64,000 nucleotides of DNA, from the NCBI GenBank assembly GCA_964522055.1, contig CAZFUP010000001.1, forward strand, positions 8,577 through 72,576. Direction: 5' to 3'. This document shows positions 5,201 to 63,590 of this stretch, piece by piece; position 1 is the stretch's first letter; each line of letters begins with the position of its first letter. Position numbers and translations under genes: made by a program. The notes under the pieces are model-generated. The model saw only the letters and a program-made list of their open reading frames with translations. It did no database searches and was not told the origin of the DNA. The DNA comes from an uncultured Gammaproteobacteria bacterium (GTDB taxonomy: Bacteria; Patescibacteriota; Patescibacteriia; Patescibacteriales; UBA12465).

Positions 5201-6223
5201 TTAAACAATTAAACCATTCTTTTTTTTATGGCGATAATCTTCTTTTAAGGAATGATAGCCATTTATAGTAGCTAGCTTAGCTGTCTTATGCCAAAAATCT
5301 GACTTATCTTTTTTAGACTTGCTTTCTAGTAAAAAATTTTTGATATTTTTATTTATTTCTAAAAATTCAAATAAGGCAATATTTTTTCTAGATAAGCGCT
5401 TTTTTTTATTGCCTGCATTCAGGCTTCTTTTTAAAGGATATATTCTTTGGTTGATGATAAGATGAAGATTGTCTATTTTTTCTTTTAGAGGTCTTTTTAA
5501 TTTTAGAATTGTTTCCAGTATCTTCCAGCTAGAATCAGAACTAGCAAGCCCTAATACCAATCGACCAGTGTTGGCGGCTGTGATAGCTTTTTGCCAATTT
5601 ATTTCTGAGTTAAGCGGGGCAATAATAATATCTGAATCGAGGTTAAGGATTTTATCCCAATTATAATTGTTTGCCTCAAGGCAATTTATATTTTCAAATT
5701 CATTCTCTAGGTTAAGTCCGAGGGAATAAGCACTTATTTTTGGACTATCTAATTCTTTAATAACAGCATTTAAGGTGGTACTTTTTCCTTGATTATCAGG
5801 TGAGCTGATAATAATTAGTCCGGATTTTTTCTTGAGTAAGCTTTTCAAAGTTTTAAGTTGCTCTCTTTCCATGCCTAATTGATTAAGGCGTAGTAATTGT
5901 TTTTCTTTAGGGATTATTTTGATTGTTATTCTATTGCCAAATTCAGAGGGGGTAATGCTTAAATAAAAACTGAGGCGATAATTAGAATCCAAAAAACGAC
6001 AATATTTTTTTTTAACAAGTTCATTGGAGGTTAGTTTAAAAATTTGCTCCAAACTATTATTTAAGTCTTTTTCTAGTTTTTTAGGCAGGGTAAAAGAATG
6101 ACTTTCGTTTCCTTGAAAAAAGTACTCTAAAGAAATGCCTTGTTTTTTGTTTTCTAAAGATATTTCGCTAGCTTCTTTAAAGGCAGCGTATTTAAATATC
6201 TTATTTATAATTTTTTTTGCCAT
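5201..6223 (-). CDS. Type II/IV secretion ATPase (PilB/PilT/GspE) family homolog with degenerate catalytic motifs (probable pseudo-ATPase)
   Basis: R(I)SxxPTxxGNRITIKII...LNQLG...GLIIISSPDNQGKSTTLNAV aligns to the GspE/PilB RVSTxPTxxGEKVVMRLL...GLILVTGPTGSGKSTTLYA region. AITAANTGRLVLGLASSDSS aligns to ALTAAETGHLVFxTLHTNSA. Walker A glycines, the Walker B Glu and the His-box His are substituted. Confidence 0.55.
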   Translation of the reverse strand: MAKKIINKIFKYAAFKEASEISLENKKQGISLEYFFQGNESHSFTLPKKLEKDLNNSLEQIFKLTSNELVKKKYCRFLDSNYRLSFYLSITPSEFGNRITIKIIPKEKQLLRLNQLGMEREQLKTLKSLLKKKSGLIIISSPDNQGKSTTLNAVIKELDSPKISAYSLGLNLENEFENINCLEANNYNWDKILNLDSDIIIAPLNSEINWQKAITAANTGRLVLGLASSDSSWKILETILKLKRPLKEKIDNLHLIINQRIYPLKRSLNAGNKKKRLSRKNIALFEFLEINKNIKNFLLESKSKKDKSDFWHKTAKLATINGYHSLKEDYRHKKKNGLIV

Positions 6224-6321
6224 AGTACTATTATTATAGCGTATTTTGTATTATTATAAAATATGTTAGAATAATTGTATTAAGCCTTATTTTAAAGACT
6301 TATTCTTAGATTTCCGATTTT

Positions 6322-6735
6322 ATGTCTTATTCTAGTTTTTATGCTCGTTTTTATTCCCGTCTAGAGAAAATAAAGGACTCTTTTTTGGAAATTTTCTCTT
6401 ATCGCTCTGGGGTTGTTTATGTCATTCTCTTGTCTTTTTATCAGCTTATTTTGTGGCTTGAAGCCTTTTTTATTAAAAAAATCTTGAGCGGGAAAATTGT
6501 AGTTTTACATTATAATATTGATTTCGGGATAGATCTTGTCGCCCCAGCTGCCTATATTTATTACTACCCATTACTAGCCTTAATAGTTGTGTTTTTAAAT
6601 TTTATACTGCTAATGTTTTTCTATAAGCGAAAAAATTTAAATGTTTTGATAAATTATCTTTTAGGAGGGGCTTTGCTTTTTAGTATTATTCTAAGCTTGG
6701 TTCTTCTGTCTGTTTATTTAATTAATTTTCGTTAA
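6322..6735 (+). CDS. Hypothetical integral membrane protein
   Basis: 137-aa ORF with several hydrophobic helices, immediately upstream of mraY; no recognisable motif. Confidence 0.35.
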   Translation: MSYSSFYARFYSRLEKIKDSFLEIFSYRSGVVYVILLSFYQLILWLEAFFIKKILSGKIVVLHYNIDFGIDLVAPAAYIYYYPLLALIVVFLNFILLMFFYKRKNLNVLINYLLGGALLFSIILSLVLLSVYLINFR

Positions 6736-6741
6736 TCTATT

Positions 6742-7791
6742 ATGTTAGGATTCTACTTAATTAAAATTCTATTTTTTTCAGTTTTAGCCTTTGCTGTTTC
6801 TTTTTTACTTACGCCAATCTTAACTCATTTTTTATATAAGTATAAATTAGGGAAGCAAATTAGAAATAGTGGATCCACTCCTATTTTTAGTGAACTTCAT
6901 GCACATAAGGCGGGAACGCCAACAATGGGGGGTGTTTTGATTTGGGGAACTTTGTTTATTTTAATTATCTTATTTTCTTTTTTTGCCGATGTTTTTCCTG
7001 ATAGTATTTTTAGGCATTTGAATTTTTTATCACGTTCTGAAACTTTATTACCACTGGGCGCTTTAATTGCAACTGCCTTAATTGGTTTAGTTGATGATTG
7101 GTTGGATGTTCGTGGCAAGGGAGTAAAAGGTGGCGGTGGATTAAAATTGCGCCATCGTTTGCTTGTTTATACCTTTATCGCTATTATCGGCGCTTTATGG
7201 TTTTATTTTAAACTTGATTGGACGATTTTTCATATTCCATTTTTAGGAAACTTTGAAATTGGTCCTTGGTATATTCCTATTTTTATTTTAGTGATAGTAG
7301 CAACTTCTTTTTCTGTTAACGAGACTGATGGTTTGGATGGTTTGTCAGGGGGAACATTGCTAGTTGCTTTTCTTTCTTATGGTATTATCGCTTTTTCTCT
7401 AGGACGTTATGATTTAGCCACTTTTTGTGCGGTTATAATTGGTGCTCTATCTGCTTTTTTGTGGTTTAATATTCCGCCAGCTCGTTTTTACATGGGAGAT
7501 ACGGGAGCGATGAGTCTAGGGGTAACACTTGGTATTATTGCCATGTTAACCAATAATGCCTTACTGCTTTTATTTTTTGGTCTTGTTTTTATAATTGAAT
7601 CTTTATCAGTTATTATTCAACTTATTTCTAAACGTTTGTTTAAGCGCAAGGTTTTTCTATCATCACCAATTCATCATCACTTTCAAGCAGTTGGCTGGTC
7701 TGAAGCTAAAGTAGTGATGCGCTTCTGGGTTATATCAGCCATGGGAGCAGTTACTGGCCTTATTATCTTTCTCCTTGATCAGAAATTTTAG
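6742..7791 (+). CDS. mraY: Phospho-N-acetylmuramoyl-pentapeptide transferase
   Basis: Conserved MraY motifs GLVDDWLDVRG, NETDGLDGL, FYMGDTGAMSLG; 10 TM topology. Confidence 0.9.
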   Translation: MLGFYLIKILFFSVLAFAVSFLLTPILTHFLYKYKLGKQIRNSGSTPIFSELHAHKAGTPTMGGVLIWGTLFILIILFSFFADVFPDSIFRHLNFLSRSETLLPLGALIATALIGLVDDWLDVRGKGVKGGGGLKLRHRLLVYTFIAIIGALWFYFKLDWTIFHIPFLGNFEIGPWYIPIFILVIVATSFSVNETDGLDGLSGGTLLVAFLSYGIIAFSLGRYDLATFCAVIIGALSAFLWFNIPPARFYMGDTGAMSLGVTLGIIAMLTNNALLLLFFGLVFIIESLSVIIQLISKRLFKRKVFLSSPIHHHFQAVGWSEAKVVMRFWVISAMGAVTGLIIFLLDQKF

Positions 7792-7819
7792 TTTAATTGT
7801 TGTGCTTTGAAAATAAATT

Positions 7820-8974
7820 ATGTTTTTAAAAACTTGGCGAAAAAAAATTTTTAATACGCGGCCAAACGAACATGAGCCTGATAAAAGTTTAATTAGTGCG
7901 GTCTTTTTTCTGCTAATTTTTGGATTAGTGATGCTTTTTAGTGCTTCATCGGTTGTCTCTTATGCTCGTTTTGGCAATACTTATCATTATTTTTTTCGTC
8001 AGTTTGTTTGGATTATTTTGTCTGTTGGCTTATTTTATTTAGTTAGCAAAATTGATTATCGGATTTTGAAAAAATTTGCTTCTTTTTTTCTCTTAGCCTC
8101 TATTCTTTTACTTATTTTAGTGTTTATTCCTGGCCTGCGAGCTGAATATGGAACTGCTCGTAGTTGGATTAATATTTTTGGTTATTCTTTCCAACCATCA
8201 GAGCTTGTAAAGCTTTCTTTTTTAATTTATTTGGCGACCTGGTTAGAAGCGAAGGGCGGCCAGCTTAATAGCGCTTCTTCTGGGATTATTCCTTTTTTAA
8301 TTGTTTTATTCCTTATTTCGGTTTTAATGTTTTTGCAGCCAGATCTTGGCACTTTATGTATTATTGTTGCTATGGCGGTTATGGTCTTTTTTGCCGGTGG
8401 CGGCAAGATTTTTCACCTCCTTCTAACTGGCGCCTTACTCGCCTTGGTTCTTTTTTCCGTTTTTAGTTTAAAAGGTGATAATTATCAAATGGATAGGTTT
8501 AAATGTTTAAAGGATCCAAGTTATAGTGCCCAAGATAAGTGTTATCAGATTAATCAATCTTTAATTGCAATTGGCTCTGGTGGTTGGTTTGGTAGGGGAA
8601 TAGGACAAAGTCGTCAAAAGTTTATGTATTTACCTGAAGTTTGGGGAGATTCAATTTTTCCAATTATTGCTGAAGAGATTGGTTTTGTTTTTAGCTCTCT
8701 TTTGATTTTACTTTATCTTTTTATCTTTTATCGGGGGCTTTTAATTGCCAGGGCTGCGCCAGATCTTTATGGCAGCATACTAGCTATTGGTATAGTTGCT
8801 TGGTTGTCGGTACAAACCTTTTTAAATATAGGTGGGATGATAAATTTAATTCCTATGACAGGAGTACCTTTGCCTTTTATTTCTGCTGGCGGATCTTCAA
8901 TTATGGCCAGCTTGCTGGCAATGGGAATTTTAGTTAATATCAGTAAACAGACTAAACAGTCTTATCGGCGTTAG
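7820..8974 (+). CDS. ftsW: SEDS-family peptidoglycan polymerase FtsW/RodA
   Basis: Polytopic membrane protein with SEDS signature region (GGWFGRGIGQS...LPEVWGDSIFPIIAEEIGF); position between mraY and murG. Confidence 0.8.
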   Translation: MFLKTWRKKIFNTRPNEHEPDKSLISAVFFLLIFGLVMLFSASSVVSYARFGNTYHYFFRQFVWIILSVGLFYLVSKIDYRILKKFASFFLLASILLLILVFIPGLRAEYGTARSWINIFGYSFQPSELVKLSFLIYLATWLEAKGGQLNSASSGIIPFLIVLFLISVLMFLQPDLGTLCIIVAMAVMVFFAGGGKIFHLLLTGALLALVLFSVFSLKGDNYQMDRFKCLKDPSYSAQDKCYQINQSLIAIGSGGWFGRGIGQSRQKFMYLPEVWGDSIFPIIAEEIGFVFSSLLILLYLFIFYRGLLIARAAPDLYGSILAIGIVAWLSVQTFLNIGGMINLIPMTGVPLPFISAGGSSIMASLLAMGILVNISKQTKQSYRR

Positions 8975-53874: not shown

Positions 53875-53949
53875 TCCCGGGTAGCGCAGCGGTAGCGCAG
53901 TTGGCTGTTAACCAATTGGTCGTCGGTTCGAATCCGACCCCGGGAGCCA
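53875..53949 (+). tRNA. tRNA-Asn (anticodon GTT), CCA encoded
   Basis: Hand-folded cloverleaf: acceptor TCCCGGG/CCCGGGA, D-arm GCGC-AGCGGTA-GCGC, anticodon arm GTTGG-CTGTTAA-CCAAT (anticodon GTT at 53907-53909), T-arm GTCGG-TTCGAAT-CCGAC, discriminator G, CCA. Confidence 0.9.
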
Positions 53950-54107: not shown

Positions 54108-56231
54108 ATGGCTTATAACGGTAGAAAATTGAATAAATATATTTGGATTCCGAAATCAAAAACTGACCTAAGGGAATATAGGGAATTTTTGAAAATTTGT
54201 GATTCTCTTGAAAAAAGAGATGGGTTTTTTAATGATAAAACTATCGGGGAAGAAATGGTTAGTTTAAGGGCTATTGTGGATAGAGATAACACTGCTTCGT
54301 CATATATAGAAAAATATAAAGATAAAAAAGTTGGAGATCAGTCTTATGTGAGTAATGCCAGAATGCTTATAAGAATTTTTAGGTGGTTAGGCTTTATAAC
54401 TAAAGATTATAATCAGGAGATAGATGGAAAGTATTATTTGACTCCGTATGGAAAAGAATTACTTGAATTTCGTGGGCCGATCAAGGAAGAAGAAATTGAT
54501 ATTTTCAGAAATGCTTTTGCTAATATGAGATTTTTTAGTCAAAACGATGATATTAATTATAGAAATTATTATTTTAAGCAAAGGCCATTTTTTAATTTGA
54601 TAAGATTTTTAGATATATTAAATTATGCTTCTCATTACGAGCTAGCTCTTTCAGCACTAGTTTTAAAAGATGAATCTGCGACCGAGATCAAAGAAAAAAT
54701 TGATAAAATAATAAAATGTAGAAAGGAAAAAAATATAAGATGGTTAATGAATGAATATGATTTGGATTGCGATAATAAAAGTCGAGTAACTGGAATATAT
54801 GATGGCCCAAAAGTTTTATTGTCGTTTGCTAAGCAAATGGGGTTAGCAGAAGAGATGGATTTAAGAAGCCCTCAAAACAAAGAAGAATACAAATTGTATA
54901 AAAGGATGTATAGTGACAGTGGTCAGATTTCCGAAAAAAGTGTTAAAAAAATAACAAGAATTACTAAGCTTGGTAAAGATTTTGTTAAAAAATTTGGTGA
55001 TAAAAAATTATTATGGTTCAATGATCTGAATGTGGCAGAAGTAGCTCTTCTATTGCTCGTGATGAAGAATGAAAGCGCTTCAACTTTAGATCTAAAAGAA
55101 CTTGGATTAGAACCAGACAGTTTAAACGATATTTTTATTGTTGAGAATAACAAGGTAGGTGTTGTTGAATCTTTTAATTTTGATTTATATAGAGATGTTC
55201 CTTATGAGGATAGAAAAAAAGTTATTTCATTGATTAACAAAGTTGATAAAAATTTTTTCTCTCATTCATTAAAACATAATACTGATAGCAATAAACAAAT
55301 ATATATTCAAAACGCTGATTACATGGAATGTAAAGAATGCTATTTTGGAAAATGTGCTTTCTATAGAAATAAAATAGACAGTTTTGGAGGTAGTGACAGA
55401 TTTTCAAGCAGAGTGTGCCCAGAAAATTTACTAAATTTTGACGATAAAGGTTATTTGCATATTGATAGCGAAGAATGTGTTGGTTGTGGCCTATGTTTTA
55501 TTTCTTGCCCTTTTGCCGCTATATCAATAGATGAAAATAGCAAATGTTTTAAAAATGAATCAACTAATTCTGGGGAGCTGATTGATATAAGAAAAAAAGA
55601 GGAGTTGACTATTTTATCAGAAAATAAAGCTGAACAAAAAAACAATATATCTTTAAGTGATATACCAACTTTAGTCAATAATTTTATTGATAAGATAAAT
55701 AGACCTGGTAAGAAATGGGATAAGGATCGTTGCTATACCTATGTAAGAAATGTTTTTAGAATATTTGATGTAGATGCTGTGTATTCAGGTTCTGGCGGAA
55801 TGAAAACAAGGTCGGATGTATCCATAATTTCTCCTTTTGTAGCTGTCAGTGAGGTTAAAAGTCCAGCAGAGTCGCCTATAAATTTAAAAGCTGTAAGACA
55901 GGCTGTTGACGCTGCTGTTCAGTCTGAAACGAAACTAACTATGGCAATCGGTTTAACAACACATAGTGGAGCCGTGGATCAGGAAACAAAATATTTTAAA
56001 ACCATGGGAATAGGTGTTTTATTGTTGGAAATAAAATATATTTCTTTTATTTCTTTTCTGAGTTTATTTGTTAAATTTACTCCGGATTCATTAAAAAGAT
56101 TAATATCTAATAATAGAGGGCTTTTTGGAAAAAATGAATTAAAAAAATACCTATTTGATGAAATAGATATTTTAAACAGTGATATAAATAAAGAGGAACT
56201 AATAGCAGTAATTGATAAATTGTTTATTTAA
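54108..56231 (+). CDS. Candidate restriction endonuclease-like protein with embedded 2x[4Fe-4S] ferredoxin-like cysteine motif and C-terminal PD-(D/E)xK-like motif
   Basis: Eight Cys around aa 430-480: CKECYFGKC...VCP...CVGCGLCFISCP (canonical CxxCxxCxxxCP). D-x13-E-V-K (SDVSIISPFVAVSEVKS) near aa 590. Convergent with, and overlapping by 8 nt, two DNA methyltransferase genes. Confidence 0.4.
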   Translation: MAYNGRKLNKYIWIPKSKTDLREYREFLKICDSLEKRDGFFNDKTIGEEMVSLRAIVDRDNTASSYIEKYKDKKVGDQSYVSNARMLIRIFRWLGFITKDYNQEIDGKYYLTPYGKELLEFRGPIKEEEIDIFRNAFANMRFFSQNDDINYRNYYFKQRPFFNLIRFLDILNYASHYELALSALVLKDESATEIKEKIDKIIKCRKEKNIRWLMNEYDLDCDNKSRVTGIYDGPKVLLSFAKQMGLAEEMDLRSPQNKEEYKLYKRMYSDSGQISEKSVKKITRITKLGKDFVKKFGDKKLLWFNDLNVAEVALLLLVMKNESASTLDLKELGLEPDSLNDIFIVENNKVGVVESFNFDLYRDVPYEDRKKVISLINKVDKNFFSHSLKHNTDSNKQIYIQNADYMECKECYFGKCAFYRNKIDSFGGSDRFSSRVCPENLLNFDDKGYLHIDSEECVGCGLCFISCPFAAISIDENSKCFKNESTNSGELIDIRKKEELTILSENKAEQKNNISLSDIPTLVNNFIDKINRPGKKWDKDRCYTYVRNVFRIFDVDAVYSGSGGMKTRSDVSIISPFVAVSEVKSPAESPINLKAVRQAVDAAVQSETKLTMAIGLTTHSGAVDQETKYFKTMGIGVLLLEIKYISFISFLSLFVKFTPDSLKRLISNNRGLFGKNELKKYLFDEIDILNSDINKEELIAVIDKLFI

Positions 56232-56994
56232 TAGCAGACAACCTTTTTTTTGCAATTTTAATATAATCATTATTGAGTTCGAATCCAATATAGTTTCTAT
56301 TATTTATTTTAGCGCTCACTAATTCACTCCCAGATCCAGCAAATGGAACAAGTATTAAATCATTTTCATTTGAAAAATGTTTTATTATTTTGTCGCATAT
56401 GGCTATTGGTTTCTGTGTTGGGTGCTCCACTTTCTCTTTTTCAAAATTTTTTCCTGCTAGTGTTGGTATTTGCCAAACATCACCGCCATGTTTTCCTAAT
56501 GGGTTAGGCATCCATGATTTTCCATTTTTAGTTATTTTATATTTAATCCTATCAGCGCTTTTGTAAGGCTCTCTTATTGGGTGGTATGTATATTTTTTTG
56601 ATTTTGTAAACCAAAGTAATGGTTCATAGTTTGCTGATGGTTTTTTGGTATAACCTGACCAGCCATTTTCATAAAACCATATAAACATTCTTCCATATTT
56701 TAACCCTAGCTCATATAAATAGCATTGTGTGTAACAAATATAATCATGAATACCATATACAAATATAGATCCATTGTCTTTTAAAACTCTTTTTGATTCT
56801 TTTAGCCATTCTTTGCTCCATTCGAACCAATCTTCAACGTTTTCCCATTTATCACTATTGTTGCCAAAATCTTTGTTTAAATTATATGGTGGGTCAATAA
56901 TAATCAAATCTACCGAGTTATCAGGTAGATTTTTCATTAATTTAACACAATCTCCACTATATATTTTATTTTTTTGAATTTTTATCTTTTGCAT
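56224..56994 (-). CDS. DNA methyltransferase, beta-class amino-MTase (N6-adenine or N4-cytosine), DPPY type
   Basis: N-terminal IYSGDCVKLMKNLPDNSVDLIIIDPPYN (motif IV) and C-terminal HPTQKPIAICDKII...LVPFAGSGSE (motifs X/I). Confidence 0.85.
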   Translation of the reverse strand: MQKIKIQKNKIYSGDCVKLMKNLPDNSVDLIIIDPPYNLNKDFGNNSDKWENVEDWFEWSKEWLKESKRVLKDNGSIFVYGIHDYICYTQCYLYELGLKYGRMFIWFYENGWSGYTKKPSANYEPLLWFTKSKKYTYHPIREPYKSADRIKYKITKNGKSWMPNPLGKHGGDVWQIPTLAGKNFEKEKVEHPTQKPIAICDKIIKHFSNENDLILVPFAGSGSELVSAKINNRNYIGFELNNDYIKIAKKRLSAIK

Positions 56995-57880
56995 TTTGTA
57001 AAATCAATATGTATTGATGATGAATATTGGGAACATAAGCATATGGATATCCATATGGGTAAACCTTTTTTCTGCTTTGGTATAAAACAGTAATACCTTT
57101 TAGAACGAAATTTCCCTTGGATTCTATATAATTGGATAGATCAGTATGAAAAGGGTATAATCTCTCTTTGTGTCTAAGGTCACTGACTACGATTGCAATG
57201 TATTTTTTATTTTTTAATATTCTGTGGCAATCGTTAAAAAAATCTCCGAGAACTTCTATGAATTTATTATAGTTTTTAATTGTGGAAATATCATTTTTGT
57301 TTCCATCGCTGTATTTTGTATCCAATTTATTATTAAGCCTTTCTTGTTTTGCTTTATGATCAATTTTTTCTAGTATGTTCCAATATGGAGGACTTGTAAC
57401 AATAAAATCGAAAAAATCATTTTCAATTTTTTTAATTTCTTTTATTGAATCGCCGTTGATAATTTTCTGCTCTGGATATTTATTTGGGTAATCAACTATT
57501 TCTTTTTTTAATCTTTTTTTGGATAGATCGGAATATTTTTTCATCAGTTCTATCCCATATCCAATTCTACCGCTAAGAGCAGTTGCTTTTAGGGTTGACC
57601 CTACTCCCAAAAACGGATCAAGAACTTTATCCTGTTTTTTTGTAAAAAAATTTATCAGCCTAGAAACATCCTGATAAGAATATGGTGCGGGGTGCATTCT
57701 TTCTATTTCGGTATCCTTATGTTTGGCCCCCAAACCTTTCTGTAGAAACACAGATATTGTTTCCGGTATCCATTCTTTCGAAGTTAAATCATTTAGTTTG
57801 TTTCTTTTATCGTAAATGCCCCTTTCGCCTTTATCAACCCCGTTTTTGCTTTTTTTTGTTGTTTTTTCTTCTTTTTTCAT
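56966..57880 (-). CDS. DNA methyltransferase (amino-MTase, SPPY type, probably N4-cytosine or N6-adenine; motif order X-I...IV)
   Basis: HPAPYSYQDVSRLINFF...VLDPFLGVGST (motifs X/I) followed by FDFIVTSPPYWN (motif IV); overlaps downstream MTase by 29 nt. Confidence 0.8.
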   Translation of the reverse strand: MKKEEKTTKKSKNGVDKGERGIYDKRNKLNDLTSKEWIPETISVFLQKGLGAKHKDTEIERMHPAPYSYQDVSRLINFFTKKQDKVLDPFLGVGSTLKATALSGRIGYGIELMKKYSDLSKKRLKKEIVDYPNKYPEQKIINGDSIKEIKKIENDFFDFIVTSPPYWNILEKIDHKAKQERLNNKLDTKYSDGNKNDISTIKNYNKFIEVLGDFFNDCHRILKNKKYIAIVVSDLRHKERLYPFHTDLSNYIESKGNFVLKGITVLYQSRKKVYPYGYPYAYVPNIHHQYILILQNAKDKNSKK

Positions 57881-57925: not shown

Positions 57926-59245
57926 TTAAATAAAAATTTGCTTGTTTTTCATTGTTAATCTGCTTTGAAGATTGGAAAGCAAATCTCTTTTTTCTATAAT
58001 ACTGCCTTCTTTGAGAATATATTTGGCATAATTTCTCATATCTACATCTTTCTGCTTTTCAAAATCTTTAGACTCTGTTTTTAGAATACTTCTACTAAAT
58101 TTATAATATCGTTCAACTTCTTCTTTAAACTGTCCTTGTATGCCAAGGATATTTAGGTCAATTTTATCAATCAGGTGGGATAGTTGGATTATTAATTCTT
58201 CTTCTCTTAAATAACCCCCTTTACAATGTAGGTTCCTAGCTCTTGTGCATCCATAATAAACATATCTTCTAACTGAGCCATCGCTCAGTTTTTTAAATTT
58301 TTCGTCAGCTGTGATTCCAGATCCACAATGACCGCATTTAATTAATTTAGTGAAAGCAAACTCTTTACATTCGTGTCTCTCGATATTATCTCTATCCAAT
58401 CTCTCTCTGGCTTTTTGAAATAACACCTTAGTAATGATTGGATCTTGTTTGCCTTGATACCATTTATCACTACCTATGGGATATTCAAATTCTCCGCAGT
58501 AATATGGATCGGCCAGTATTCTATAAATCATACTAAGAGTAAGATTTTTATTATTTTTTGTTTTAAAATCTGTTTCATTTACTATCCATCTTAGCAGTTG
58601 TCTGCCACTCCAATTTTCATAGGCCACTTTCTCGAATAATTTTTTAATATATGGCGCCCTCTTTGGGTCTATAAAAACTTTTTTATCGCCTTTGTCAGCA
58701 TATTTGTCATGAATATATCCAAGGGGTGCTGGTCCTGGTCGCCAACCTTTTTCGCACTTTGCTCTTAGCCCTCGTTTAACATTTATGCCTTTGTGGTCGT
58801 TTTCGAGCTTGGCTTGAGATCCAAGAATCATTAGAAGAAACTTCTCGTTGGGGTTATTTGTAAACTTTTGGCCATGCGTTCTTATCTCTTGAAGTCTACC
58901 TTGATCCATTAAGTCCACTACAGCCCCTAAATCGCCCGCATTACGGCTTAAGCGGTCTGGTGCCAAGCAAAGTATCCCATTAAACATTCCAGTCCTTATA
59001 TCGGCCAGTAATTGGTTGTAGACGGGTCTTTGGCCAGAATCCTTGGCTGAATGACTTTCTCGTCTTATATCGGCTATCTCCATGTTTTCAGCCTTTGCCA
59101 TTTCCAGCATCTCTTTTATTTGAGAATCAATAGAAAGGGCTTGCTGTTCGTCTGATTCTGTTGATTTTCTTGCATATAGGCAATACTTGATGGGAATTAC
59201 CTCTTGAACCCTTGTAAAACCCACGGTTTGTTGTTGTGTTTCCAT
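57926..59245 (-). CDS. Large serine recombinase (resolvase-domain integrase/transposase-type)
   Basis: N-terminal resolvase catalytic domain YCLYARKSTESDEQQALSIDSQ (Ser nucleophile) and ...RLSRN; recombinase domain; C-terminal zinc ribbon CGHCGS...YYGCTRARNLHC. Confidence 0.85.
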   Translation of the reverse strand: METQQQTVGFTRVQEVIPIKYCLYARKSTESDEQQALSIDSQIKEMLEMAKAENMEIADIRRESHSAKDSGQRPVYNQLLADIRTGMFNGILCLAPDRLSRNAGDLGAVVDLMDQGRLQEIRTHGQKFTNNPNEKFLLMILGSQAKLENDHKGINVKRGLRAKCEKGWRPGPAPLGYIHDKYADKGDKKVFIDPKRAPYIKKLFEKVAYENWSGRQLLRWIVNETDFKTKNNKNLTLSMIYRILADPYYCGEFEYPIGSDKWYQGKQDPIITKVLFQKARERLDRDNIERHECKEFAFTKLIKCGHCGSGITADEKFKKLSDGSVRRYVYYGCTRARNLHCKGGYLREEELIIQLSHLIDKIDLNILGIQGQFKEEVERYYKFSRSILKTESKDFEKQKDVDMRNYAKYILKEGSIIEKRDLLSNLQSRLTMKNKQIFI

Positions 59246-59282
59246 ATTTTTACTAATTTTACTTAATTACAACAACATTAAT

Positions 59283-59650
59283 GACGCGACCCGCAAAGGT
59301 AGTCCAGGCCCCTGAAGTAGACAAACTGTTGGTAACTAAACTTTACTTTTATGCCTTTTTAAGCTATATTTTAAGTGCGAAACCACAATTGAATTTTCGA
59401 AAGACGTGCTTAAAAAGTACGGTCTCTTGTATATAGGAACGGGCACTCCGACCCATACAAGAGGCAGTCTTTCGGGACACCAATTGTGGTTTCGCAACCA
59501 GGTCGGGTGTCCGTTTTTGTTTTCGGGCATTTGACGTTTTATAAATCAAGTTAAGAGGGGGCATAACCTGCTGAGGCTGGTGGCCGTTCCTCCGGCCGAG
59601 CCGGACCGGAATCGGCCACCAGCCAACCTCGGGCAGGTTTGGCTATATGC
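59283..59650. ncRNA. Candidate structured non-coding RNA(s)/recombination-associated structured region (unclassified). Contains a ~120-nt extended hairpin (59376-59496) and a GC-rich (~65% GC) multi-helix element (59556-59645)
   Basis: Perfect 16-bp inverted repeat TGCGAAACCACAATTG (59376-59391)/CAATTGTGGTTTCGCA (59481-59496). Nested perfect IRs CGAAAGAC/GTCTTTCG and CTCTTGTAT/ATACAAGAG. 10-bp IR CTGGTGGCCG/CGGCCACCAG plus ACCTGC/GCAGGT. GC content far above the ~35% background. No ORF of note. Confidence 0.35.
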
Positions 59651-59710
59651 TGTTAATTAATCGCTTGGCACATTGACCTTTGTTCCGTGCTATTTTGAGA
59701 ATAGAGCAAT

Positions 59711-59740
59711 AAAAAAACACCAAAAAGAGAATTTTTGGTG
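59711..59740 (-). terminator. Rho-independent terminator (minus strand) for ORF 59813-60433
   Basis: On minus strand: CACCAAAAA-ttctc-TTTTTGGTG perfect 9-bp stem followed by TTTTTTT. Confidence 0.7.
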
Positions 59741-59812
59741 AATGTTTTGTGAAAGTATATATCAAAAAATCGCCCTTTTTGACCGATTTTCTAAGTTATT
59801 AACATTCACTGT

Positions 59813-60433
59813 TTATTTTGTTGATTTATTGAATTCTGGGCGGTATTTAAAAGGGATTGCTTTTGTTGGTGTTTTATAGTTATTTTGTGATTTTTGTATA
59901 AGACATAAAATATATTTAGATTCTTTAGCTATCCTTCCGTTAGTATCTTCAATTTCCTGCCTAAACACTCTGGAATCGATTTCATCTTTAGGTTTTTTGC
60001 CTAGATTTTTTATCCAACCATTGTAATCATGATATGTCTTAGCCCCATCTTGGTTATTATAGAAGAACCATATAATTAAGGCCCTTTGGCCATCAACCGG
60101 AATCTCGTCGTCTAAGTATTTGATAATTATTTGGCCGCTATTATCATTGCGTGTAATCACTAGTTTTTCTTTAGCCTTTTTTGTTTCTTGGTTTTCTGAT
60201 TCGTCATTTAGAAAATTTGATGTTGGATTTATAAGCCAAATGACCTTTCTGATTATATCGGAGTTTCTCATTCTGATAATTATTTTTTCTCGCCACCCTT
60301 GTTCTATTAACTTGAAGTATAAAAATCTGGCAAAAATGAAAAATAAAATAACTACCATTAGAAAAATAATGGTCATATTCCATATTGATTTAGTTGCCTC
60401 ATGAAGAGCTGAGGCGAATGCTGGGTCTGCCAT
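59813..60433 (-). CDS. Hypothetical membrane-anchored protein (single N-terminal TM helix plus ~165-aa soluble domain)
   Basis: IWNMTIIFLMVVILFFIFARFLYF hydrophobic segment near N-terminus; no recognisable motif; lies in the accessory island. Confidence 0.45.
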   Translation of the reverse strand: MADPAFASALHEATKSIWNMTIIFLMVVILFFIFARFLYFKLIEQGWREKIIIRMRNSDIIRKVIWLINPTSNFLNDESENQETKKAKEKLVITRNDNSGQIIIKYLDDEIPVDGQRALIIWFFYNNQDGAKTYHDYNGWIKNLGKKPKDEIDSRVFRQEIEDTNGRIAKESKYILCLIQKSQNNYKTPTKAIPFKYRPEFNKSTK

Positions 60434-60508: not shown

Positions 60509-60537
60509 TTGACTTTTTTGCTTAAAAATTGTAAGAT
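60509..60537 (+). promoter_or_regulatory. Candidate promoter for ORF 60550-61320
   Basis: TTGACT at 60509-60514, 17-nt spacer, TAAGAT at 60532-60537 preceded by TG. Confidence 0.3.
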
Positions 60538-60549
60538 TTAAGCAGATTT

Positions 60550-61320
60550 ATGAATTTATCTTTTAACGCTGCTTTGGCAGATAATTACACGAGCCAATCA
60601 CAAAAAATTAGAGTATTGACCGAAAGCTGGGTTGATAAAAATGCCTATTGCCCTAATTGTGGGCAGTTAAACGTAGATAAATACGGAAACAATAAACCGG
60701 TGGCCGATTTTTATTGTCCAAATTGCCATGAAGATTATGAATTAAAGAGTAAAAAAGATAGCGTTGGCGCAAAAATTGTTGACGGAGCTTATCGAACAAT
60801 GATTGAAAGATTAAATAGCAGTAATAACCCAAATTTCTTTTTATTAAATTATGATCTTGATGCTTTAGAGGTTTTAAATTTTTTAGTCATACCAAAACAT
60901 TTTTTTATTCCCGGAATCATTGAAAAAAGAAAACCGTTGGCAGAAACCGCCAGGCGAGCCGGTTGGATAGGCTGTAATATATTATTACACGGAATTCCGC
61001 AGTCCGGAAAAATATATTTTGTTAAAAATAAGATTGTTCAACCCAAGGAATTAGTTTTATCTGAATGGAAAAAGACTTTATTTTTAAGAGAAGAAAAAGA
61101 AGCTAGTGCAAAGGGTTGGTTGCTGGATATTATGAATTGCGTGGAAAAATTTAGAGGCAGAGAATTTTCGCTGGGCGAAGTTTATAAGTTTGAAGCCGGA
61201 TTGAGCAGGAAGTATCCTGATAACCGTCATATCAAAGATAAAATTCGTCAGCAGCTCCAATTCTTAAGAGATAAGAGGTATTTAAAATTTATAAATCGTG
61301 GAACCTATAAATTATTATAA
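60550..61320 (+). CDS. Zinc-ribbon-containing nuclease-like protein, candidate restriction endonuclease (possibly DpnI/Dam-replacing-family-like, methyl-directed)
   Basis: Two CPNC pairs (YCPNCGQ...FYCPNCHEDYELKSKK) with D-x10-E-L-K spacing reminiscent of PD-(D/E)xK; basic C-terminal region (RQQLQFLRDKRYLKF) compatible with a winged helix; located between defence-type genes. Confidence 0.4.
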   Translation: MNLSFNAALADNYTSQSQKIRVLTESWVDKNAYCPNCGQLNVDKYGNNKPVADFYCPNCHEDYELKSKKDSVGAKIVDGAYRTMIERLNSSNNPNFFLLNYDLDALEVLNFLVIPKHFFIPGIIEKRKPLAETARRAGWIGCNILLHGIPQSGKIYFVKNKIVQPKELVLSEWKKTLFLREEKEASAKGWLLDIMNCVEKFRGREFSLGEVYKFEAGLSRKYPDNRHIKDKIRQQLQFLRDKRYLKFINRGTYKLL

Positions 61321-61346: not shown

Positions 61347-62711
61347 ATGAAACAAATAATAAATTACGATAAATTAATAGTCAATCCAGAAAACTATCGC
61401 TTTGATCCAGTGGATGGCCAGGAACAAGCAATAGATTTAATGATTGAAGAAAAGGGAGCGGAAATATTAAATATGGCGAAACATATCCTTGAAAAGGGCT
61501 TGGATCAGGCCAAGGATTTGAGGGTTTTAGAATTAAAAAATAAAGAGTATCTCGTTTTAGACGGCAATAGAAGAATTGTCGCAATCAAATGTCTTCATAA
61601 TCCGGAGTTAGTAAAAAATAAAAAATTACAAAATGCATTTAAATCACTTTTAAAGACTGGTAAGAAGCCAATATCAAAAATATTGTGTTTTGTGTATTTG
61701 AACGAAAAAGACGCGGCAGAATGGATTAAGTTAGACCACACCGGAAAAAACGATGGAGTTGGACAAGATTCTTGGGGTTCGCCTGAAAAAGAAAGATTTG
61801 GATATAAATTTGAAGGAACGATATCCCCGGCCATGCAAGCGGTTAATATCATAGAAAAAGAACTTGGCAAAAAAATTAATACTAAAAAATTAAAGATATC
61901 CACAGTAAATCGCATATTATCTAGCCCTGACGCTCGTTTATATGTAGGTGTGAATGTTGATAAAGGCAATTTAACTTTTACTTGTGATAAAAACGAGGCA
62001 ATTAAACGATTAGACACTTTGGTTGATAAGATTATTACAAGTAATGTTACTGTTGGCACTGTATATCACAAACCTCAAATAGTAGAGTTTGTTACAGATC
62101 TTTACGGCGCAAAACCTGCTACGTGTAAAAAGCCAACCCTTCCTTTTCCAAGTGTTAGTAATGTGTCTGTCGGTGGTAAGGCCGTACCAGGCACATTAGT
62201 GAAAAATGACTGGATTGATTATAAGGAATATACCGCATATAATGGACCTGAAAAAGTAAAGAAATTACTTAATGAAATGAGGTCATTAGACCCAAAACAA
62301 AATGCAAATATATTAATGCCAGCTTTGCGTGTTTTGTTGGAATTATGTTTATATGATAAATTAAGACAGACAGGACATATCGTAAAATTAGTAAATATTT
62401 ATAAATCTAATATAAAGAATGAAAATACTAATAGAGCTAAGAAGGGAGCGGCCTTAATTTCTGAAAAAAAGAATTGGACGCCAAGTTTTAGAGAAATGCT
62501 AAATTATATTGTCGAAGAAAATAGCGGTGTAATTAATGACCCGCAAGCGCGAGAAATTTTAGAAAAAAAGATTAAAAAGGAAGATAATTTTGTAAAAGGT
62601 CTTAACGATTTCATACATAATGTCCACGATATTCCTGCTAAAGACGATCCAGAAAAAACCTGGAGCGGATTCGGTCGATTACTTTTTGATATAATTAAAG
62701 ATATAAAATAG
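61347..62711 (+). CDS. ParB/Srx-fold (ParBc, ParB-like nuclease/NTPase domain) protein with uncharacterised C-terminal region
   Basis: N-terminal LIVNPENYRFDPV (PNPxQPR-like box) and RVLELKNKEYLVLDGNRRIVAIKCL (GERRxRA-like arginine finger) typical of the ParB N-terminal domain; no ParA partner nearby. Confidence 0.6.
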   Translation: MKQIINYDKLIVNPENYRFDPVDGQEQAIDLMIEEKGAEILNMAKHILEKGLDQAKDLRVLELKNKEYLVLDGNRRIVAIKCLHNPELVKNKKLQNAFKSLLKTGKKPISKILCFVYLNEKDAAEWIKLDHTGKNDGVGQDSWGSPEKERFGYKFEGTISPAMQAVNIIEKELGKKINTKKLKISTVNRILSSPDARLYVGVNVDKGNLTFTCDKNEAIKRLDTLVDKIITSNVTVGTVYHKPQIVEFVTDLYGAKPATCKKPTLPFPSVSNVSVGGKAVPGTLVKNDWIDYKEYTAYNGPEKVKKLLNEMRSLDPKQNANILMPALRVLLELCLYDKLRQTGHIVKLVNIYKSNIKNENTNRAKKGAALISEKKNWTPSFREMLNYIVEENSGVINDPQAREILEKKIKKEDNFVKGLNDFIHNVHDIPAKDDPEKTWSGFGRLLFDIIKDIK

Positions 62712-62720
62712 CAAATAAAT

Positions 62721-63590
62721 ATGTTTTTTTCCCCATTACGCTACCCTGGCGGTAAAAATAAACTAGCAAAATTTATTGCTATGATTTGTTTTGAAAATGA
62801 TATTAATGGACATTATATTGAGCCCTACGCCGGCGGAGCCGCAGTAGCTTTATATTTATTGATTAATGATAAAGTTTCTAAAATAACTATAAATGATAAA
62901 GATCGCTCAATTTATGCTTTTTGGTATTCTGTTTTAAATCATACAACTAAATTTTGTAATTCAATTAATAACACAGAGATAAATGTTAAAAATTGGAAAA
63001 AATTTAAGGAAGTTCAAAAAAATAAAGAAACTGCTGATTTATTTACTTTAGGTTTTTCAACATTTTTTCTTAATCGTACAAATGTTTCCGGCATTATCGA
63101 CGGCGGTATTATTGGTGGGCTAAAACAAGTGGGCAATTACAAGATTAATTGCAGATTTAATAAAAAAACTTTAATTGAAAGAATTAAAAAAATCGCTTCT
63201 TGTAAAGATAAAATAGAATTATACAATTTAGATGCCTTGGATTTAATTAAAAGAATTAATAAAGAATGCAGAAGTTCAAATAAAATATTTTATTTTGACC
63301 CTCCGTATTATTTAAAAGGCGAATCGCTATATTTAAATTGTTATAAGCCAGACGACCATAAACAAGTTAGTGAAGAAATAATAAAGATTAAAAATGCGAA
63401 ATGGATAGTTTCTTATGACAATACGACGGAGATAAAAAAGTTATATAGTAATTGTCAAAAAATTGAATATTCATTTTTTCATACAGCACGCGAAGCAAAA
63501 ATAGGGAAAGAAATTTTATTTTTTTGTGATAAGCTTAAAGTTCCGGTCGTACCAGACCCAACAAGACTTGTCGAAAATGATTATGAATAA
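62721..63590 (+). CDS. DNA adenine methyltransferase, Dam/D12 class (N6-adenine)
   Basis: N-terminal FSPLRYPGGKNKLAKFI (D12-class AdoMet motif), catalytic FYFDPPYY. Confidence 0.8.
   Translation: MFFSPLRYPGGKNKLAKFIAMICFENDINGHYIEPYAGGAAVALYLLINDKVSKITINDKDRSIYAFWYSVLNHTTKFCNSINNTEINVKNWKKFKEVQKNKETADLFTLGFSTFFLNRTNVSGIIDGGIIGGLKQVGNYKINCRFNKKTLIERIKKIASCKDKIELYNLDALDLIKRINKECRSSNKIFYFDPPYYLKGESLYLNCYKPDDHKQVSEEIIKIKNAKWIVSYDNTTEIKKLYSNCQKIEYSFFHTAREAKIGKEILFFCDKLKVPVVPDPTRLVENDYE

Follow-up and report, generated by a model that had tools for sequence, protein, structure and literature searches.

The 256-aa gene at positions 60550-61320 of the window, by which we mean the whole 64-kb stretch of DNA that was analysed, is by its sequence a predicted full-length and intact member of the DpnI family of Type IIM restriction endonucleases, a family that is already known. 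This gene and a neighbouring PD-λ-5 defence system sit in an ordinary mobile defence island of a Patescibacteria genome. The original prediction had seen a paradox here, a DpnI-like nuclease living beside a Dam-class adenine methyltransferase (MTase). That paradox dissolves because the MTase can be recognized as part of PD-λ-5, where it is not a Dam-family enzyme but the cognate partner of an intervening ParB-like gene. Once this middle gene is recognized, the window itself contains a restriction enzyme of a well-understood type, and the defence island around it is typical. Taken as a whole, the explanation that we consider likely is that of a stand-alone DpnI-family enzyme beside an autonomous PD-λ-5 system, with an MTase that most likely modifies a site other than GATC. 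The features discussed below are listed in Table 1.

Table 1. Features of the defence island in the window, and residues of the DpnI homologue compared with R.DpnI.
Feature	Position or residues	Strand	Basis or state in the window protein
tRNA-Asn(GTT), left island border	53875..53949	+	ARAGORN, Rfam, blastn synteny
Separate R-M-like module: 707-aa protein (+), two beta-class N6_N4 MTases (-)	54108..57880	.	Pfam, NCBIfam, motif scan, PDB ferredoxin-only hits
Large serine recombinase of the island	57926..59245	-	Pfam Resolvase, Recombinase, Zn_ribbon_recom
DNA homology block, 84-86% identity, common to the window and the DpnI loci L001-L004 and L015	60483..61359	+	blastn
Promoter-like site TTGACT-17-TAAGAT, 12 nt 5' of the DpnI ATG, within the conserved upstream block	60509..60537	+	consensus scan only
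Predicted DpnI-family Type IIM restriction endonuclease gene, 256 aa	60550..61320	+	Pfam, PDB, PADLOC, dN/dS
N-terminal PD-(D/E)XK catalytic domain with Cys4 zinc site, aa 1-181	60550..61092	+	mapping onto R.DpnI
C-terminal winged-helix m6A-sensing domain, aa 187-254	61108..61311	+	Pfam DpnI_C
PD-λ-5_A homologue, 454 aa	61347..62711	+	PADLOC, AF2 model, Foldseek, conserved columns
PD-λ-5_B homologue, D12-class MTase, 289 aa, DPPY motif IV at residue 193	62721..63590	+	Pfam PF02086, PADLOC
Catalysis	E25, D53, E64, K66		identical, same positions
Zinc binding (predicted)	C34, C37, C56, C59		identical
Guanine and minor-groove readout	R.DpnI Q18, N48, D78, R126, R135		identical; window numbering N48, R127, R136
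Methyl pocket	R.DpnI L129, W138, G140		identical; window numbering L130, W139, G141
Winged-helix pocket	R.DpnI K229, R231, Q232, Q235		identical; window numbering K231, R233, Q234, Q237
Winged-helix pocket	R.DpnI E228		D230

The open reading frame starts with ATG and provides 256 codons of protein. Both Pfam models of the family matched this protein above their gathering scores: DpnI (PF06044) over residues 1-181 (profile positions 1-182 of 183, E=3.5e-82, 274.9 bits against a gathering score of 26.7) and DpnI_C (PF17726) over residues 187-254 (profile positions 2-69 of 70, E=4.5e-30, 104.1 bits against 23). The PADLOC model mREase_II (Type II methyl-directed REase) scored 385.7 bits. The sole solved relative is the crystal-structure sequence of R.DpnI (PDB 4ESJ/4KYW), which aligns with residues 1-255 at 51% identity, and this full-length match (E=3.9e-85) places membership in the DpnI family beyond chance. 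The DpnI/Dam-replacing architecture that had been suggested earlier is thus confirmed by the two Pfam matches, the end-to-end alignment with R.DpnI and the retention of its functional residues, and the basic C-terminal region that had been proposed as a winged helix is the part covered by DpnI_C. These same matches contradict the possibility that the protein lacks any similarity to DpnI or to the PD-(D/E)xK fold. The two CPNC motifs are present as described (C34-P-N-C37 and C56-P-N-C59), but they only partly bracket the proposed D...ELK segment, since D53 lies between them whereas E64-L-K66 sits five residues past the second. In a wider homologue search, at least 7,999 DpnI-family matches had E<=1e-20, and the best of these come almost entirely from metagenome-assembled genomes of Patescibacteria (CPR). 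One database entry (P0001) is 100% identical to the window protein.

A protein with paired cysteines might instead be an unrelated zinc-ribbon DNA-binding protein or a transcription factor, and weak zinc-ribbon hits in Pfam and NCBIfam do occur over residues 28-70. However, these hits are below cut-off, and the full-length DpnI match in which they fall outscores them by about 250 bits. Moreover, in R.DpnI the same four cysteines bind structural zinc within the nuclease domain (PMC3424567). We therefore reject the zinc-ribbon reading, to which we assign a vanishingly small probability.

For a closer comparison with R.DpnI, residue roles were taken from two papers on its structure (PMC4117772, PMC3424567) and mapped by alignment. 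Of the 21 residues checked, 20 are identical in the window protein, including 16 of 16 in the catalytic domain and four of five in the winged helix, and the sole change (E228 to D) is conservative. Among the residues that read the G:C pairs and m6A (Q18, N48, R126, L129, R135, W138, G140, E228, K229, R231, Q232 and Q235), 11 of 12 are identical. Because these functional residues match those of R.DpnI, we infer that the window enzyme would be specific for Gm6ATC. The gene has a dN/dS of 0.06-0.08 relative to orthologues that include those with 89-91% amino acid identity, which indicates strong purifying selection and therefore a gene that is intact and maintained.

With an overall identity of only 51% and one altered residue in the winged-helix pocket, the homologue could conceivably have drifted to another methylated target or to methylation-independent cleavage, such that GATC methylation would be irrelevant to it. 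This is exceedingly improbable, given that all catalytic-domain residues published as contacting bases or forming the methyl pocket (Q18, N48, R126, L129, R135, W138 and G140) are unchanged, and that the specificity of R.DpnI is reported to be robust to pocket substitutions (PMC4117772). Recognition of Gm6ATC hence remains our preferred assignment. The window protein and R.DpnI of Streptococcus pneumoniae, a Type IIM enzyme, are also nearly equal in length (256 aa versus 257 residues in the solved chain), and they share two domains, the Cys4 zinc site, the catalytic E/D/E-x-K residues, the N48/R126/R135 and L129/W138/G140 sets and the winged-helix recognition helix. Besides the level of identity and the E228 substitution, they differ in their hosts, which are a member of the Patescibacteria (CPR) and the pneumococcus, respectively. 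The pneumococcal DpnI cassette consists of dpnC and dpnD, whereas the neighbours in the window are different and PD-λ-5 lies downstream.

Following the tRNA-Asn gene, the island carries in order a 707-aa Fe-S protein, two N6_N4 MTases, a serine recombinase, a 206-aa ORF, the DpnI gene, a 454-aa gene and a D12 MTase. Elsewhere in the window, the ORFs are arranged as in an ordinary chromosome. The same tRNA-Asn borders DpnI-bearing islands in two of the loci used for comparison (L001 and L015); the islands differ, and all are located at the rpoD/tRNA-Asn site. The flanking dnaG-like and rpoD-like genes were assigned from L001, where their counterparts carry Pfam annotations. To locate the far border of the island, we searched the 64-kb window for a second copy of the 3' end of tRNA-Asn and found none. 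A gene-poor stretch of 570 bp (59245-59813) separates the serine recombinase from the 206-aa ORF; it matches no Rfam family and contains a bidirectional terminator-like hairpin with a 9-bp stem (59718-59740).

Comparison with other DpnI loci demonstrates that the DpnI gene is a module of its own. The block of DNA homology shared with these loci consists of the gene and about 45-65 bp upstream, and it ends at the gene ends. The closest homologues, at 89-91% amino acid identity, are followed by cargo other than PD-λ-5. For example, the gene in L001 precedes a 78-aa gene and Shedu, and that in L003 precedes an AAA_15 ATPase and has a HEPN_Swt1 gene upstream. Across 80 DpnI loci from species-representative genomes we found no conserved DpnI neighbour, with Pfam families recurring in at most 3-4 of the approximately 135 neighbouring ORFs on each side. 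Gene order thus shows DpnI to be a stand-alone module.

In several loci (L001, L003, L004, L010 and L011), DpnI or PD-λ-5 is carried as cargo on small integrative elements, which have a gene for a tyrosine integrase or for a large serine recombinase as well as one for a replication protein of the REP_ORF2-G2P/RepSA type. These elements appear to belong to one family in Patescibacteria, with exchangeable defence cargo that includes Shedu, AAA_15, HEPN_Swt1, PD-λ-5 and DpnI.

The space between the DpnI gene and the MTase is filled by the 454-aa ORF (61347-62711), which was absent from the original prediction. All three genes share one strand and are separated by 26 nt and 9 nt. In the PADLOC search, the PD-Lambda-5_A model recognized the 454-aa protein with 260.8 bits and the PD-Lambda-5_B model recognized the MTase with 389.8 bits; the two proteins are here called A and B. 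A functional selection in E. coli uncovered PD-λ-5, whose source was E. coli ECOR7. Its discoverers called it 'ParB/HEPN, methyltransferase' and a compact 'RM+Abi' system of prophages; phage protection has been shown only for the ECOR7 version (Vassallo et al. 2022, PMC9519451). In the AF2 model of A (pLDDT 89), a disordered linker (residues 269-285) separates two domains. The N-terminal one, approximately 265 residues long, has Foldseek matches to Noc, ParB and KorB (prob 1.00, E=3e-4 and above), and conserved columns reveal an LDGNRR motif that is invariant across A homologues. The C-terminal domain (residues 290-454) is confidently modelled as helical and has no significant Foldseek similarity to HEPN (E>1); HHsearch support for HEPN in the original PD-λ-5 was also weak (PMC9519451).

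In seven of seven other loci examined that encode an A homologue, a D12 MTase is located directly 3' of A and DpnI is absent, and the same A-B pair is carried by Paracoccus phage Pkon1. The 454-aa gene and the D12 MTase are thus a predicted autonomous PD-λ-5 defence pair, separate from DpnI, and modularity is demonstrated for both systems. As in E. coli ECOR7, the pair comprises adjacent, co-directional genes for A (about 450 aa, with a ParB-like N-terminus) and for a D12 MTase. Unlike the prototype, which resides in an enterobacterial prophage, the window pair is located in a chromosomal island of a CPR organism, and the C-terminal domain of its A protein is without significant similarity to HEPN.

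The A protein is hypervariable. When the window gene (61347-62711) is compared with those of L015 (9005-10393) and L031 (9592-10869), amino acid identity to the L015 protein is 28% over the N-terminal 150 residues with no significant similarity beyond, and the L031 protein matches significantly only within the ParB-like domain, at 35% over 96 residues. There is no DNA homology between the A genes of the window and L015, whereas the DpnI and MTase genes on either side are 85-86% identical in DNA sequence. The B protein of the window is 84% identical to that of L015 and 64% identical to that of L031. This pattern suggests domain or allele shuffling of the A effector. Many database homologues of A share only its N-terminal 57-74%. 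A metagenome scan with the MTase recovered only the L015 contig again and one short contig.

A record of how DpnI genes have been exchanged appears to be preserved in related loci. The pneumococcus has complementary DpnI and DpnII cassettes, and Neisseria has a 'dam-replacing gene'; the same either/or logic is seen in loci of Patescibacteria. A 5' fragment of an N6_N4 MTase gene, 40-181 codons in length, lies directly upstream of DpnI in 12 of the 80 loci (L058, L033, L020, L094, L024, L070, L022, L071, L055, L050, L053 and L037; see for example L024:7796-7996 and L058:3589-4131). The fragment ends within a few nucleotides of the DpnI start in 10 of these, and in the other two (L070 and L050) the alignments run 42 and 114 nt past it. 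These stumps include the motif FADPPYxLSNGG and are 46-91% identical to the MTase of L099, which partners an R.DpnII-family nuclease (genes at 6211-7020 and 7022-7882). In such loci, DpnI occupies the exact place of the 3' part of the MTase and the nuclease, and the junctions fall at several different codons inside the MTase gene. R.DpnII itself is present in none of the 80 DpnI loci, and the window has no such MTase remnant upstream of DpnI. The stumps look like a fossil of the replacement of DpnII cassettes by DpnI, with several points of truncation, and would then record DpnII-to-DpnI switching outside the pneumococcus and Neisseria.

The most distant DpnI-like proteins, at 33-41% identity, are encoded in L089 (8001-8762), L093 (8001-8942) and L091, with greater protein lengths in L091 and L093. 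In L089 and L093, the DpnI-like gene has a complete DpnA-like N6_N4 MTase gene 0.5-2 kb upstream. These three may be DpnI relatives with another specificity, or they may represent genuine nuclease/MTase pairs.

Whether DpnI is compatible with B depends on the site that B methylates. The MTase had been described as a Dam-class enzyme 1.4 kb away from the nuclease gene. Its D12 class (PF02086, E=7.6e-19) and its position 1.4 kb downstream on the same strand are as stated, but assignment to the Dam family does not hold, as NCBIfam TIGR00571 (Dam) scores 55.4 bits against a cut-off of 114.85. A sequence search of the PDB detected none of the solved Dam (EcoDam), T4 Dam and DpnM enzymes even at E<=10, and its only match was M.CbeI (7M6B), an alpha-class N4-cytosine MTase. 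Hence B resembles the GATC-specific D12 MTases Dam and DpnM in its PF02086 class and its DPPY catalytic motif, yet differs from them in falling below the family cut-off and in having M.CbeI as its nearest solved relative. The window contains three MTase-like ORFs, none of which reaches the Dam-family cut-off. GATC occurs 112 times in the window, and we infer that these sites are probably unmethylated in the host, although a Dam gene may lie in the part of the genome beyond these 64 kb. Among 4-bp palindromes in the window, TCGA is the most depleted (42 observed versus 93 expected, O/E 0.45); the O/E of GATC is 0.69.

Other evidence on the site comes from the prototype and from gene linkage. 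E. coli MG1655 is dam+, and its DNA is already Dam-methylated. Cloning of the E. coli PD-λ-5 required a derivative of MG1655 from which mrr had been deleted (PMC9519451). That this deletion was needed in such a host implies that the PD-λ-5 mark differs from that of Dam. In the window, as in L015 and L031, an intact B gene lies 3' of DpnI. In codon alignments of the window and L015, dS is 0.75 for DpnI and 0.77 for B, with dN/dS values of 0.08 and 0.11, while synonymous change in the dnaG-like and rpoD-like flanking genes has reached saturation (pS 0.85-0.95). The equal dS values, the low dN/dS and the saturated core together indicate that DpnI and B moved together and that both were kept functional. 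In L099, PD-λ-5 adjoins a DpnII-type system, and its occurrence beside both DpnI and a DpnII-type system indicates that it tolerates both states of GATC methylation.

The original prediction had offered three ways out of the supposed conflict: an MTase with a specificity other than GATC, a nuclease that recognizes another modified motif, or antagonistic regulation of the two. The indirect evidence favours the first. Given the score below the Dam cut-off, the cloning in a Δmrr dam+ host, the intact B genes beside DpnI, the equal dS of DpnI and B, the MTase stumps and the arrangement in L099, the site of the MTase is very probably not GATC. No recognition site for any PD-λ-5 MTase is reported in PMC9519451, in the Paracoccus phage paper or in the later literature that was searched. 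The MTase is 41-48% identical to homologues in phage and prophage records, and at this distance it might not share the specificity of the E. coli enzyme that was tested.

A true conflict would exist if the MTase methylated GATC or a site containing it, in which case the DpnI homologue might be inactive, tightly repressed, or switched on only upon loss of the island or phage infection, as in addiction or abortive infection. The D12 class does contain Dam, and in L099 a B homologue with 69% identity immediately precedes an N6_N4 MTase and R.DpnII, an order that resembles dpnM-dpnA-dpnB. Nevertheless, B is always paired with A and never with a DpnII nuclease (seven of seven loci), and the truncation of DpnII-type MTases that abut DpnI shows the form that a genuine incompatibility takes. 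The DpnI homologue has intact catalytic and recognition residues, apart from the conservative change at E228, and is under purifying selection. The low Dam score of B, its lack of detectable relationship to solved Dam enzymes and the Δmrr requirement of the prototype in a dam+ strain also speak against GATC as its site. We thus regard a true conflict as very improbable, and favour an MTase that modifies another sequence.

A different question is whether the three genes form one selected unit, possibly a single operon, in which the methylation-dependent and protecting arms close each other's escape routes. They are on the same strand with short gaps, and no terminator-like site is evident between DpnI and A. 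The order DpnI, A, B recurs in L015, which shares ancestry with the window, and independently in L031, and the equal dS of DpnI and B against saturated core genes speaks for joint movement. However, PD-λ-5 is present in only two of the 80 DpnI loci, DpnI is present in none of the seven other PD-λ-5 loci, and the closest DpnI homologues have other downstream cargo. Moreover, the gap between DpnI and A varies (26, 234 and 820 nt), A-B pairs elsewhere have their own upstream regions, and the clustering of genes in defence islands explains the linkage. A three-gene unit is therefore decidedly unlikely. The shared order may reflect just defence-island linkage with allele swapping, although the fact that the two systems co-occur in two of 80 species-level loci as well as in the window, and that DpnI and B have diverged equally, could point beyond passive linkage. 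A broader proposal is that DpnI and PD-λ-5 form a co-selected and co-mobilised composite in Patescibacteria, with the hypervariable ParB-like effector swapped as a cassette and with DpnI spreading by replacement of DpnII-type GATC R-M cassettes, as the MTase stumps in about 15% of loci would reflect. This we consider unlikely, and two separate modules remain our preferred reading.

By homology, the DpnI enzyme would act as a two-domain monomer in which the catalytic domain, stabilized by its Cys4 zinc site, and the winged helix both recognize fully methylated Gm6ATC. It would cut within this site and destroy incoming Dam-methylated phage or other foreign DNA, and host GATC sites would stay unmethylated and hence safe. 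The MTase would serve as the modification subunit of PD-λ-5, together with the ParB-like/helical effector A, and not as an antagonist of DpnI. The two modules lie side by side on a mobile island and have recently travelled together; DpnI would target Dam-marked DNA, and PD-λ-5 would presumably attack DNA that is without its own mark. More generally, the abundance of the DpnI family in Patescibacteria implies that GATC would commonly be unmethylated in these organisms and that Dam-methylated invaders would be targeted. Co-residence with DpnI also offers a handle on the specificity of the PD-λ-5 MTase, which must be compatible with DpnI.

Another module in the same island includes the 707-aa protein (54108-56231, + strand), which has a 4Fe-4S dicluster ferredoxin-like domain at approximately residues 400-480 and a C-terminal D...EVK motif that resembles PD-(D/E)XK. 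Adjoining its gene are two overlapping genes for beta-class MTases, M1 (56224-56994) and its neighbour (56966-57880), both on the - strand; one has a DPPY motif and the other SPPY. PADLOC gave no match for this module. The 707-aa protein may be a restriction endonuclease that carries an Fe-S domain and acts at an asymmetric site. M1 was also considered as a DpnA-like GATC MTase, which we judged unlikely, as it is 31% identical to the DpnII-associated MTase of L099 and is paired with an SPPY MTase and the 707-aa protein in what looks like an asymmetric-site system. Finally, in at least three of the DpnI loci, a lexA-like repressor gene that encodes LexA_DNA_bind and Peptidase_S24 domains directly precedes the DpnI gene in the same orientation (L019:7323-7991, L043:7392-7982 and L059:7386-7976).
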